From positions 171,368,001 through 171,432,000 of the forward strand of contig OX597814.1 of the NCBI GenBank assembly GCA_951406725.2: a stretch of DNA of 64,000 nt. The letters run 5' to 3'. Made by a program: the position numbers and the translations under genes. Source of the stretch: Octopus vulgaris (taxonomy: Eukaryota). The notes below the pieces were generated by a model, which was not told where the DNA came from, did no database searches, and worked only from the letters and a program-made list of their open reading frames with translations. Shown here piece by piece: positions 5,365-56,098 of this stretch (position 1 is the stretch's first letter; each line of letters starts with the position of its first letter).

Positions 5365-5518
5365 ATTTCTAAATGCTGTATTTGTTTTCCGTGAAAGTTT
5401 GGCGCGCTGTTGGTTGGGGCATTTGAATTATAACGTCGGATGTAATCAATTGAACCACACGAGTATTTATCGTTATGGTAAAATCTGGCGTGTGATTGAG
5501 TGGATTTCATCCAGATAG

Positions 5519-5601
5519 TTTTGGCTGACGAGCTACAAGTGGATTTTTTTTGTAAGTAAAATTACATTTAATTCATTAATAGCGAAACAATTGTCCCAAA
5601 A
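5519..5601 (+). ncRNA. Minimal type I hammerhead ribozyme
   Basis: TTTTGG CTGACGA GCTA...TAGC GAAA CAATTG TC CCAAAA: 6-bp stem I, canonical core, palindromic stem III, GUC site (cleavage after 5595). Confidence 0.85.
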
Positions 5602-6054
5602 TAATCTGTATTTTTGTTATTTTTTATTTGCCCTGTCCGTGTGAGCTAACAATCGTACTGGCTTTCATGGGAAACATGTATTTTCGTGGTTGAAACCTTT
5701 TGGATTAACTGGTGCTAGAGTGAGCAATATAGTGACCACTCTCTTATATTTATTTTGTAAAAATATTATAATATGTTATAAAATATTATAATAATCCAGG
5801 TTTCTCGGAGCACTAGGCCACTTGGTGTTGAATAAATATACTATTAAATTAGTATCTAATTCTCTCACCCTTATTAGTTAATTATAATTATGCTGCATTT
5901 ATTTCTAAATGCTGTATTTGTTTTCCGTGAAAGTTTGGCGCGCTGTTGGTTGGGGCATTTGAATTATAACGTCGGATGTAATCAATTGAACCACACGCGT
6001 ATTTATCGTTATGGTAAAATCTGGCGTGTGATTGAGTGGATTTCATCCAGATAG

Positions 6055-6135
6055 TTTTGGCTGACGAGCTACAAGTGGATTTTTTGTAAGTAAAATTACA
6101 TTTAATTCATTAATAGCGAAACAATTGTCCCAAAA
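6055..6135 (+). ncRNA. Minimal type I hammerhead ribozyme (second copy)
   Basis: Same core and stems; cleavage after 6129. Confidence 0.85.
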
Positions 6136-6411
6136 TAATCTGTATTTTTGTTATTTTTTATTTGCCCTGTCCGTGTGAGCTAACAATCGTACTGGCTTTC
6201 ATGGGAAACATGTATTTTCGTGGTTGAAACCTTTTGGATTAACTGGTGCTAGAGTGAGCAATATAGTGACCACTCTCTTATATTTATTTTGTAAAAATAT
6301 TATAATATGTTATAAAATATTATAATAATCCAGGTTTCTCGGAGCACTAGGCCACTTGGTGTTGAATAAATATACTATTAAATTAGTATCTAATTCTCTC
6401 ACCCTTATTAA

Positions 6412-6462
<51 letters not shown>

Positions 6463-21955: not shown

Positions 21956-24900
21956 TCATGGAGGCTTTCTAGCAACTGCTATTTGGTGCATGAGAGAGTT
22001 CGATGCAGCTGCCCTCATCTGCCCCTCCTGCCGTGAAGTTGGTTCATCTGGGACACCTGACAGGAAGAGATCCAGCTTCATTTTAAAGACATCTGTATCC
22101 ACCCCATGCAGGTCTCTCAGGTTCTTCGGGAGGATATTGAAGAGCTGTGGGCCTCGGAAGCCCAGGCTATCACAGAATCTTGTCCTACATCTTGATGGCA
22201 GGTTTGGAGTCCTAGGCACCACGCAGTGGCGCCCAGTTCTGGCATTTGCGTAACTCTCGATGCCAAAGTTCAGGACACTTCCCTCCAGGATCTTCCAGAT
22301 GTATATTATGGCATATCTTTCCCGCCTACGCTCCAGGGAATATAATTTTAATCTCTTGAGTCTTTCCCAGTAGCTTACATTCTGCATAGAGGCTATCTTC
22401 TTTGTGTAGCTTCGTTGGATCGCCTCAAGTTCTGTGATCAACTTGACACTGGATGGTGACCATAGCTGAGAGCAATAGTCAAAGTGGCTTAGGACAAGTG
22501 TCTTCCAGAGGACCATCATGGTTTCTTGTTCTCTTGTTCTAAAGGTTCTAAGAATCCATCCAGCCAGCCGTCTACATTTCATTGTCAGTTTAGCAACATG
22601 TACATGAAAGGTCGCGTCATCACTCATGTGAATACCCAGGTCACGCACTGATTGTGCCTCTGGGATTGCAATCCCTCCGGGTCCAGTGTATTCATTGGGT
22701 ATTGCATTCAGTTTTGCATGCTGATAGTATAAAGCTTGAAACTTTCCAGCATTGAACTGCATGCTATTCTTTTCAGCCCACTTGTATATTTCGTCCAGCT
22801 CACATTGCAGGTGTTTAGTGTCCTCAGGGTTCTGTATTGCCTGTGAAACTTTTGTATCATCTGCATAACTTGTGATCGTGGCTCTCTGCGTGGCTGAGGG
22901 CATGTCTGAGAGGGCCATTATGAACAGTAGTGGTCCCAGAACAGTGCCCTGCGGAACACCGCTCACTATTTGTGTGTTAATGGAGGTGGCCCCATTGGCT
23001 ACTACCACCTGACTTCTATCCTTCAGAAAGTCATGAAGCCATTCTCCCAGTTTTCCAACTATGTTGAGATCACGCAGTTTGTGACATATCATTCCATGAT
23101 CGACTTTATCAAAGGCCTTTGCAAAGTCGAGATATATCACTTCCACATTTGAGTGGTTGAGCAGCCGTTTCAGCACCCAGTCATAGTGTTGTAGGAGCTG
23201 AGTTAAACAGCTTCTCCCTGGTCGGAAACCATGTTGGGTGTCGGGCAGCAAGTCATTCTCTTCAAGGAAGGTGATCAGCTTCCTTCTGACTATTCGTTCC
23301 ATGACCTTGCTGATGTGTGAGGTCAGAGAGATAGGTCTATAGTTCTTGGCTTCCGCTCTGCTACCTCCTTTATGAATGGGGCATATTTTACCTTCCTTCA
23401 GTTTTCCTGGAAGTTTGCCAGCTGCAAGGAAGCTCTGAAAGAGGAACTGCAGTGGTCTTGCTAGGACTCTCTTACATGCTTTTAGGAGGATTGCCAGGAA
23501 TCCATCGGGGCCAGTAGCTGAGTCTGTTTTCATTTCATCTATAGCCTTGGTTACATCGTCTTCCTTTATATCGATGTAATCTATCGTCGCCGCCTCTGAT
23601 TTTATATCTGCAGTGGTAAAAAAGTCAGTTGGATTGGTGATTTGGAGATGCCCAAGGGGTGGAGTGAAAACACTCTTGAATTGCTCATTCAGTATTTCAC
23701 TTACCCTCATTGGTTTTCCTGTAAGTGTGCCATCCTTTTCGAGGAGTGGCCCTATTCTACAGTGCACTGTAGCTGTTTCTTTGGCATACCTGTAGAAAGC
23801 TCTGGGGTTAGATTTTATGTTTTCTATAGCCCAGGCTTCTTTGTCTGCTCTTTCTTTTTCATGGGAGAGTTGCAGACATTTTTCGATTTCCAACAGTTTT
23901 ATTTTTAGGCGGGACTTTTCACTGCTTTCAATCTGTTTGTTTAGGCGATTTGAAAATTTCGTACGCCGTCTCATTAAAATTTTCCTCTCTCTGGGGATTT
24001 TGTTCTTGTGTACAGTGGCCTTTCTCTCTGGGACACATTTGTAGCATATGGCTTGCATTACAGACATGAATTGTTGAAGTTTCACGTCGATGTCTGGCGA
24101 GGAGAGACATTTAGGCCAGTTTTGTTTGAGGATCTCTTTCTCAATTTGTTTCCAGTTTGCCTTATGGTAGTTCAAGCTGGAAAGATTTTGAGGGTTTCTT
24201 GTAGGCTGCATGTCCGTGCTCTCTTTTGGCCCGTACATGGTCAGCTCTATCATGTTGTGATCCGAGAGTAGTGTCGGTGTCACTTTCACATTATGGATGA
24301 GATCCATGTCATTTGTGAAGCAGAGATCCAGTGTGTTACCTGCCCTGGTTGGTTGGAGTATTACCTGCTCCATGTACAGGGTGTTGATGAGGTTCAGGAG
24401 GGACCTCGCCTGTCCTCGTTCACATCTTGTCATTCCTGGGAGAGAAAGGCCCTCGGGCCATCTGACATTGGGCAGATTGAAGTCTCCCATAAGAAGCACA
24501 CCTATGTGTTGTTCTAATGTGGTTAGAATTTCTTCTATTTTTATAAGGCAGTCTTCAAACTTGCCCACATGGCTTGGGGCATCTGGAGGGCGATATGTAG
24601 CACACACAACTACATCAAGTTGCCTAATATGTACAATTAGTGTGTCACACACCGAGTTTGAGTATGACAAGAGGACCTGGGGTGTGAGGTCCTCACGGAT
24701 GTACATAGCAACACCTCCATGGCTCCTTTCTTTCCTGTCGGTCCGTAGTACAGCATACTGTGGTATGTGTAACTCCGCATCTGCTATGTCCGGTTTCAGG
24801 TGCGTTTCTGTAAGTGCTATGCATAAGGCTTGATTGCATGCAACAAAGTCTCTCAGGAACGGGATCTTTGTCCTGTTACTGAGTGTTTGCAGTCCTCTGA

Positions 24901-25060
24901 TGTTCAGTAGGAGTATCGAGGTGAGGTGTACGTTGTTGCCGGCGGTGTCCATCCTGTGTCTGTTTGCTGTGGTGGTCTGGTATATAGTGGGTAGTCCCAC
25001 CTGCGGGCTTGGGTTTGATGAAGCCAGGTCAGCTGCTGTACAATCTTTTGTGCCATGCAC
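21956..25060 (-). CDS. LINE ORF2: apurinic-like endonuclease + reverse transcriptase (first ATG at 24952; the track start is GTG)
   Basis: APE motifs LNIRGL, LTETHL, MGDFN, TLDLCF, LSDH; RT motifs [42 protein letters not shown]; CR1-like C-terminus SYWERL...LERRR, FKMKLD. Confidence 0.96.
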
Positions 25061-25422
25061 AAAAAAGATTGTTGCTCAGCAACTGCTCTTTCGACAACAT
25101 CATGTTGGCTGTTTGTGGCGCGCACAACATCTGCGTACCTCCGCTTTGGGGCAGGTGGTGCGTAGTCCATCCCTTTTCTTTGTGTTGATGGTTTGTCCAT
25201 CTGCCTCGTGTCTCTGTGGCAGGGTCCCCGATGTGCAAAGCGGCAGCCTGCACCTTCCTTTCCGTGCCAGCAGGAACCTCTCAGGTAGAACATACACACC
25301 CGTGTGCGCTGTTTGGTTCCATCCTTTGCGGTTCTACTTCTATTCCTGGTTGTTTCACTCTTTGGTCCTGCTTGAGCTTTTTCTTTTCCTTTAGCTCTTC
25401 CAGTCCTTCTTTTAGTTCTTCT
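24904..25422 (-). CDS. LINE ORF1 C-terminal part with CCCH zinc finger (5' truncated and frameshifted)
   Basis: Frame open 25422-24904: basic stretch then [22 protein letters not shown]; overlaps ORF2. Confidence 0.65.
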
Positions 25423-25560: not shown

Positions 25561-26090
<530 letters not shown>

Positions 26091-26164
26091 TATACACATA
26101 CATATATATATATGTATATATATATACTAGTGAGGGCTAGTGGCATTTAGTAAAACTATCGAAT

Positions 26165-26229
26165 ATAGCGCCGATGACGGAATTCAAACTGATTTCCACG
26201 TTTGCGATCCAGAAACATATGTCCGCTAT
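26165..26229 (+). ncRNA. Type I hammerhead, CCGAUGA core variant
   Basis: ATAGCG CCGATGA C GGA...TCC A GAAA CATATG TC CGCTAT; 6-bp stem I and palindromic stem III. Confidence 0.78.
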
Positions 26230-26721
26230 TAACGGTAAGTGATTGAATTCGTATATTTGCCACTCCGGTTTTGTGTATGTGAGCCGTAAGGGCCTTCGTT
26301 TTTGGATTCTCCACTTATAGAAATTGGAAAAACGGTCTTTGACTGCCATTTCTAATTCCTTCGGTATGAGGTGAAACAGCCTGCTGTTAACCTTCTTATT
26401 TTTCTTTACTATATACTGAACCTTGCAAAGGTCTTGACAATTAATTTGTCGTATTTACATACCGAAATTTACCGGTAAATAATTGTTGGTTACATGATAA
26501 ACCACAGGAAAATTATTTACCATTTTTACCATTTTTATTGAATTACCATGTGGATTCCTCATTCCATTACGATTACCCAGAAAGCGCGCATGGCAGAATT
26601 TTGGAGGGAAAATTTACGTTCCCGGTCGCCACTTAGTTTTAAAATCTGCACTCTTCCCCCCACTATCTGATGTCGCTGGGTCAGAAGTGAGGGCTAGTGG
26701 CATTTAGTAAAACTATCGAAT

Positions 26722-26786
26722 ATAGCGCCGATGACGGAATTCAAACTGATTTCCACGTTTGCGATCCAGAAACATATGTCCGCTAT
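26722..26786 (+). ncRNA. Type I hammerhead, CCGAUGA core variant (second copy)
   Basis: Same sequence as 26165-26229. Confidence 0.78.
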
Positions 26787-26951
26787 TAACGGTAAGTGAT
26801 TGAATTCGTATATTTGCCACTCCGGTTTTGTGTATGTGAGCCGTAAGGGCCTTCGTTTTTGGATTCTCCACTTATAGAAATTGGAAAAACGGTCTTTGAC
26901 TGCCATTTCTAATTCCTTCGGTATGAGGTGAAACAGCCTGCTGTTAACCTT

Positions 26952-27289
<338 letters not shown>

Positions 27290-30074: not shown

Positions 30075-30144
<70 letters not shown>

Positions 30145-30344
30145 ACTCCACTAGAATGGACGAAAGCGCTAATATATGATATATGATATATGATATATAA
30201 TATATGATGCATAAAACATGTAATATACAAATAAATATCTGTAAATATAAAACCATCTGAATTTCTGAGTACCTCATTTCTTCTAATATAAAATACCTGT
30301 ACACCATCTCCAAACTTTCTAATATATATATATATATATTTAAA

Positions 30345-32213: not shown

Positions 32214-32803
32214 CATATATATAAACACATATTCACATAACGCATATATACATGGGTGTCATGTTCGGTTATGGCATTTATTACCGCTGAAGATCAGTAT
32301 GAATGTCACAACTATAGTTTCGTTAATTATGTATGTCCCATTCAGTTACGATCAATCGACACATAGACGCAGATACTCTCTCTCTCCCTCTCACTTTCTC
32401 CTTCTCTCTCTCTCTCCTGTGTCATACGCACACACATATATACATTCATGTAGGCACATATTTCTTCTTATCCTAGTTACTTCGGGTGTTGTACATGTTT
32501 TTCTTTCTGCGTACCCTCATGGAGCAGTTGCGACAAACATTTCCCAGACATTTCCTTCTGAAATACTTTATGCAGTGTCCCTTAATATTTAAAAAAACCT
32601 GATTGGAACGAGGCATGATTGGAACGAGATCTCGTTTTTCTTTTTCTAGCAGTTGTGCTGACCGCACTAAGGATCAATCGCTGGCTCAAGTATTTTAGGC
32701 TTTTCGTTTTCCCTAAGCTTCACTTCGTTATTATATTTTCCTTTCATTTATATTTATAAATGTTCTGAAATCTTTCTCAGCCTTGGATCTTTATCTCATT
32801 CTG

Positions 32804-32860
<57 letters not shown>

Positions 32861-34451: not shown

Positions 34452-34499
34452 GTCTCCGATGAAGGGATATATAAAATATCCCGAAAACAGCTGTAAGAC
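34452..34499 (+). ncRNA. Minimal hammerhead motif (CCGAUGA variant) in a Penelope-like fragment
   Basis: GTCT CCGATGA A GGGATAT..ATATCCC GAAA(A) CAGCTG TA AGAC; the extra A may impair it. The downstream flank recurs at 32755-32808. Confidence 0.65.
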
Positions 34500-55984: not shown

Positions 55985-56098
55985 CTTAGAAGAAATGAGG
56001 TACTCAGAAATCTTGATGGTTTTATATTTACAGATATTTATTAGTATGATATATATATATATATATATATATATAATCATATGCATACATATGTATAT

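Follow-up and report, generated by a model that had tools for sequence, protein, structure and literature searches.

A high-copy octopus repeat with tandem type I hammerhead motifs and a doubly altered core

Within a 64,000-nt stretch of Octopus vulgaris DNA (the window; GCA_951406725.2, contig OX597814.1, positions 171,368,001 to 171,432,000 of the forward strand, numbered here from 1), we found an element of 1.48 tandem units, set in a TA microsatellite, in which each unit holds a type I hammerhead fold. The core of this fold differs from the canonical one in two ways: position 4 is C instead of U (U4C), and stem II opens at its base with a C.A mismatch. We think it probable that the element belongs, as a recent copy, to a high-copy non-coding repeat family, likely a non-LTR retrozyme moved by a Penelope-type retrotransposon. 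Both the class and the U4C change are already known; what is new is that U4C and the C.A mismatch occur together, as the fixed state of a high-copy animal family undetected by Rfam. The literature that we searched, largely open-access main texts, holds no account of the octopus family or of the combined core.

Comparison of the window with itself revealed 266/266 identity at an offset of 557 bp, between a 5' repeat at 26129-26394 (+) and a 3' repeat at 26686-26951 (+); the 5' repeat is the first copy of a partial tandem, and its first base may belong to a target duplication. Separating them is a unique, non-coding part of the 557-bp unit (26395-26685, +, 291 bp) that bears most of the subfamily variation. 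The original prediction had described the repeats as apparently identical, and indeed they are. The predicted monomer between the two predicted cut sites spans 26224-26780 (+) and is 557 nt long; the GC content of the unit is 39%, under the ceiling of about 45-50% for metazoan non-LTR retrozymes.

The element is flanked on the left by a (TA)n-type microsatellite (26083-26126) and on the right by a (TA)n/(CA)n microsatellite (26955-27288). The pentamer TACTA occurs at both ends (26125-26129 and 26952-26956, both +), yet inside the TA tract. Judging from these junctions, the insert may run from 26130 to 26951 (822 bp) with a possible 5-bp target-site duplication; such duplications in metazoan retrozymes exceed 4 bp when present. 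Given that the right junction also matches internal positions 26404-26415 over 12 nt, microhomology with a short deletion is a rival to target duplication. The length of 823 bp originally assigned to the element may therefore be one base too long; the repeats on which it was based are exact, but TACTA and the stem II mismatch had been overlooked.

The 557-bp unit shows no sign of coding capacity. Pfam returned no match for its seven longest frames (7 of the 19 listed), and a 105-aa minus-strand frame had no homologue among longer proteins, a weak test. No tRNA and no residual Penelope coding sequence were found in the unit, and the element sequence has no TG..CA ends, primer-binding site or polypurine tract. 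These results bear out the description of a non-coding 557-nt unit without LTR hallmarks. We rejected two related classes. A plant-type LTR retrozyme (type III hammerhead, TG..CA LTRs, primer-binding site, polypurine tract, 4-bp duplication) is ruled out by the type I topology and the lack of LTR features. An autonomous Penelope-like element is ruled out as well, as the 291-bp spacer between the repeats has no ORF for a reverse transcriptase (RT) and GIY-YIG endonuclease.

The two hammerhead folds occupy 26165-26229 (+) and 26722-26786 (+), with C17 of the GUC cut triplet at 26223 and 26780, after which cleavage is predicted; the CCGAUGA motifs had been correctly placed 557 nt apart. In fold 1, the core lies at 26171-26177. 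Stem I (26165-26170/26224-26229) has six Watson-Crick pairs, and stem II is in two parts, IIa (26179-26181/26208-26210) and IIb (26185-26189/26200-26204). Stem III consists of two pairs, A26215-U26222 and C26216-G26221, around the palindromic hexamer 26216-26221. Core position 4 is C26172, and at the base of stem II C26178 stands opposite A26211, which can be read as a mismatch or as one extra base per side. Each tandem unit has its own type I fold and the two are consecutive, as in retrozymes. The element has no canonical CUGANGA/GAAA core with a paired 10.1-11.1; C4 and the C.A mismatch are both family-wide. The structural features fit metazoan non-LTR retrozymes, and because the core is not canonical, the element is a variant of that class.

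The C.A mismatch hid these motifs from a strict hammerhead scan. Rfam gave no hammerhead match at the gathering score anywhere in the window, nor at E<=10 in 25800-27000, in agreement with the proposal that canonical searches miss a C4 core; the Rfam matches near the element (25800-27000) fall on TA tracts and on the adjacent palindrome, and we rejected them as hairpin look-alikes. A relaxed type I descriptor matched five places in the window (5525, 6061, 26171, 26728 and 34456) and none in 100 block-wise dinucleotide shuffles of it, a favourable control since the descriptor was loosened after the motifs had been seen. The descriptor scan found no hammerhead on the minus strand.

We asked how often these departures occur elsewhere by searching viral contigs with a fixed stem II pattern while varying position 4. 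There were an estimated 490 or so matches with U4, 18 with C4 and none with A4 or G4; part of the excess of C4 over A4 and G4 arises because C is a transition from U. All three stems are present in 10/18 of the C4 matches (9 distinct), and Rfam Hammerhead_1 was found in three of the seven three-stem C4 loci tested, with scores below gathering. An extra A before GAAA was present in 21 matches, compared with about 650 without it. Three of the 21, all from one family (L264, L267 and L278), make a complete type I fold with the same C.A mismatch; they have a canonical U4 and a cut triplet of GUA in two cases and GUC in one, and Rfam does not detect any of them at E 0.1. Each departure recurs separately in nature, and the two were not found together outside the octopus family (0 of 119 metagenome loci). 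The exact 20-nt family word had no match in the viral contigs. A family-shaped pattern returned 119 metagenome loci that we discarded as chance matches, as blastn kinship did not exceed a 15-nt seed and the stem test gave 0/119.

The recurrence of C4 agrees with the idea that U4C is a tolerated variant, but its novelty had been overstated, as a natural, slower hammerhead with U4C has been described before (PMC3088659). In a natural viroid hammerhead (Ambros and Flores 1998, as cited in PMC3088659), the same change by itself 'considerably decreases activity in vitro', yet suffices for viroid infectivity. There it is a single variant, whereas here it is fixed in a high-copy animal repeat and joined by a second departure. 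The motif at 34456, which had been cited in support of C4, is real and does have C4; however, only one copy of it was seen and its GAAA box contains an additional A, so that it adds little weight.

To characterize the family, we turned to public sequencing runs. The element is partly present in 20 of the 24 runs listed, none of them registered as RNA, and we compared four of these on one unit (26129-26685): two DNA-like runs and two, X2 and X15, that a program guessed to be RNA, under three organism labels in all. In the two DNA-like runs, 519 and 364 contigs matched the unit, with a summed depth of up to about 10^5, which is not a copy number. This is a many-variant, high-copy, dispersed repeat family.

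Variants were called at a 5% threshold, at which a T4 subfamily below 5% would go unseen. There are 27 listed substitution sites, two of them in loop II and none in the 55 stem and core bases. No change is listed at C4, C26178 or A26211 in the four runs, and the guessed-RNA contigs that vary at 26199 are unchanged at 26172. Because no variant is listed at C4 across runs, C4 is the state of the family and not a private mutation; the outcome that would have undone the original prediction, a family consensus of CUGAUGA, was not what we found. Depletion of variants across stems and core is suggested but falls short of significance (P 0.056 with all 27 sites, 0.11 with the 21 sites from DNA runs). 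Among at least 19 loose ends, those in X17 show subfamilies in which loop II is replaced and stem III is shortened but still palindromic; the stem strand is retained, as is the A that precedes GAAA.

At six sites, the alleles of the window copy make up 0-25% of depth in the DNA-like runs and 82-100% in X2 and X15. This shift places the window copy in a minority subfamily that dominates the guessed-RNA runs. Together with the identical repeats, the six-site alleles support a recent subfamily as its origin, as implied when the element was first called young. Set against the DNA-run majority, the window copy has about nine differences in the spacer 26395-26685 and about one in the repeat 26129-26394, though its two repeats are identical.

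The two guessed-RNA runs also hold a closed, unit-length contig cycle. In X15, record 9 (579 nt) closes on itself by a 30-nt overlap to give a 549-nt unit; in X2, records 20, 21 and 25 close the same 549-nt cycle at a depth of 80-88. Neither cycle is broken at the element's ends. Read-through of a 1.5-unit copy explains such an unbroken cycle less well than circular RNA or long multimers do. These contigs carry neither strand nor end information, the RNA status of X2 and X15 is guessed, and the head-to-tail joint is also found in DNA (the window and X1), so that the cycle is no proof of a circle. Both guessed-RNA runs, from two labels and two studies, share changes at 26284 and 26297 that have zero depth in both DNA-like runs and that, by eye, lengthen a local hairpin. 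A rare genomic master locus would explain the zero DNA depth at these sites.

Folding predictions do not favour a hammerhead that acts as a monomer. The active monomer fold is at -8.2 compared to a predicted minimum of -13.9, stem III has a pairing probability of only 0.03-0.04, and in a competing fold G8-A9-C9a pairs with the cut site (probability 0.28). Pairing of two motifs is predicted to help: the double-hammerhead fold is at -27.2 kcal/mol, compared to -15.4 for two monomer folds, though still above the two-motif minimum of -32.0. For the whole element, the active fold is at -215.2 and the predicted minimum at -220.7. The 557-nt monomer folds better than shuffles (z -3.8 linear, z -3.1 circular) into a branched structure with 59% of its bases paired; the canonical neighbour at 5367-6420 beats its shuffles more strongly (z -7.5, circular fold). 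The C.A mismatch at the stem II base makes good activity less likely. Only one of nine predicted frog retrozyme dimers was cleaved in vitro. As part of the explanation that we hold to be probable, we read the altered core as that of a tolerated, slower ribozyme rather than a dead one.

How might such an element spread? We propose that hammerheads pairing as a dimer through the palindromic stem III would slowly cut a transcript that contains both motifs, and that a host RtcB-type ligase, as demonstrated for other retrozymes in PMC7229834, would then circularize the 557-nt piece. A TA-targeting Penelope-like RT/endonuclease would go round the circle more than once while copying it into another TA tract; copying of this kind would yield 1.48 units with identical ends. 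TA targeting has been reported for the Neptune and Naiad Penelope-like elements (bioRxiv 2021.04.23.441226). Work with a purified Anolis Penelope-like protein (PMC11167929) bears on this scheme in several ways: the protein helped the ribozyme cut, insertion was unimpaired by hammerhead mutants, and priming also took place without target homology. Counting against the proposed mechanism are the two departures acting together, the active folds that are not the predicted minimum, and an intact-looking LINE 1 kb away. A bolder version, to which we give only tentative credence, is that this is a transcribed family, still spreading, whose circles arise from the doubly altered hammerhead working as a dimer, with the two departures forming a tuned or compensating slow switch that keeps the circle uncut; a protein or A-to-I editing might control this switch. 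If this were true, current descriptors would be blind to entire families of active ribozymes and circular RNAs in animals.

The same mobile family could instead carry a vestigial hammerhead, with uncut multimers copied by a Penelope-like protein and the variant core hitch-hiking in a successful founder. This is possible, if rather unlikely in our judgement: it would account for the two core departures and the favoured inactive folds; in vitro, the Anolis element could do without cleavage (PMC11167929), eight of the nine frog elements stayed uncleaved, and tandem transcripts would also yield the contig cycle. What speaks for a working ribozyme is that loop II is substituted or replaced between subfamilies whose core and stems stay constant, a suggestive pattern at P 0.056, and that both departures are found in otherwise complete viral-contig folds. 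The choice between a slow and a vestigial ribozyme matters, as a family with two changes that should slow cutting dominates a unit-length cycle in probable RNA and so tests the need for hammerhead cleavage in Penelope-type mobility and circle formation. If the octopus hammerhead cuts, entire families are being overlooked in ribozyme censuses of animal genomes; otherwise, spread of the retrozyme kind does not require a ribozyme.

Three other explanations are far less probable. The 549-nt RNA could be a viroid-like circle that replicates from RNA to RNA, leaving reverse-transcribed footprints in the genome. Nearly the same variant does dominate the guessed-RNA contigs under two organism labels and in two studies, with letters at 26284 and 26297 that the DNA-like runs lack, and cloned mussel circles likewise matched no genomic copy in PMC7229834. 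We regard this as very unlikely, however, given that contig sets lose rare variants and a rare genomic master copy explains the absence, that the minus strand has no hammerhead and the fold is branched and only 59% paired, and that the RNA is one clean sequence instead of a swarm. It is at least as improbable that C26178.A26211 is an A-to-I editing site at which a C-I pair would restore stem II and switch the ribozyme on. ADARs favour an A that stands opposite a C, and cephalopods edit heavily; here the mismatch is family-wide, lies at a helix end and belongs to an octopod. Against editing, neither guessed-RNA run shows A>G at A26211, though minority letters are concealed in contigs; a viral-contig fold has the same mismatch, and the helix is short. 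Lastly, a local duplication or assembly artefact, with the motif present by chance, is largely refuted and, to our minds, hardly credible. Identical repeats between long microsatellites are error-prone in assembly and a collapse could inflate identity, but the same head-to-tail joint occurs in the independent runs X1, X2 and X15, the shuffles of the window never produced the motif, and the family is abundant in two DNA-like runs.

We compared the element with known systems. The metazoan non-LTR retrozymes described by Cervera and de la Pena (2020, PMC7229834), which include a mussel element of 350-390 bp and hence one from a mollusc, share its head-to-tail type I units, low GC, lack of coding sequence, of LTRs, of a primer-binding site and of a polypurine tract, and self-paired monomer. 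Their units are 170-400 nt long as given there, compared to 557 nt here; cleavage and circles were demonstrated there and are predicted here, and the octopus core has U4C and the C.A mismatch. Li, Clavereau and Pollet (bioRxiv 10.64898/2026.07.22.740005) put forward non-LTR retrozymes as non-autonomous derivatives of Penelope elements. The octopus element resembles theirs in having two consecutive hammerheads in a partial tandem, within their range of 51-972 bp; the classes that they report include no cephalopod, and their canonical and minimal descriptors would probably miss the octopus core.

The hammerheads in the pseudo-LTRs of Penelope-like elements (Cervera and de la Pena 2014, PMC4209133) share further details with the octopus motif: an extra base between positions 9 and 10.1, a palindromic 15.2-16.2 and loop 3, a predicted dimer fold and low expected activity. 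In contrast, the octopus element flanks no ORF and has a 6-bp stem I. Neither C4 nor an extra A between 11.1 and G12 is among the variants in the main text of that paper, supplementary figures apart.

The window is rich in microsatellites, and three further hammerhead-type repeats in it (about 5367-6420; 34456 with 32753; 25812-26082) also end in TA tracts. The retrozyme-like element at 5367-6420 (+) comprises nearly two 536-bp units that are 99% identical, beginning within SINE-like sequence and ending in (TA)n. Its hammerheads at 5525 and 6061 are canonical type I motifs in which stem III is palindromic and loop II long and AU-rich, and this family offers a ready natural control in the same window. 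The motif at 34452-34488 (+) is a Penelope-type minimal hammerhead with a 4-bp stem I, a 7-bp stem II, a palindromic stem III and C4; one base is added after A9, the cut site is UA, and the GAAA box holds the additional A noted above. It was seen with its core in a single copy. The 72 bases downstream of it have a truncated relative (89%) at 32753-32824 that ends in (TA)n.

No Penelope RT or GIY-YIG domain was found in the 103 other frames of the window. About 1 kb from the element, between two long (TA)n tracts, lies an intact-looking LINE (21959-25422, -) with a 1039-aa APE-RT ORF (21959-25075, -) and an upstream frame bearing a CCCH zinc finger. This LINE is a possible mobiliser of the element, but the two have no 3' tail in common. 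A relative of the LINE, P0001, is 90% identical, and the best named homologue of its ORF is from Argonauta hians (62%).

Directly to the left of the element is an inverted repeat (25812-26082) with arms of about 140 bp that are 93% identical. Each arm bears a 5'-truncated hammerhead-like motif consisting of stem II, GAAA and a palindromic stem III, an arrangement resembling the inverted pseudo-LTRs of Penelope insertions. Relatives of this repeat lie at 30137-30286 and 55986-56072, and every copy adjoins TA tracts.
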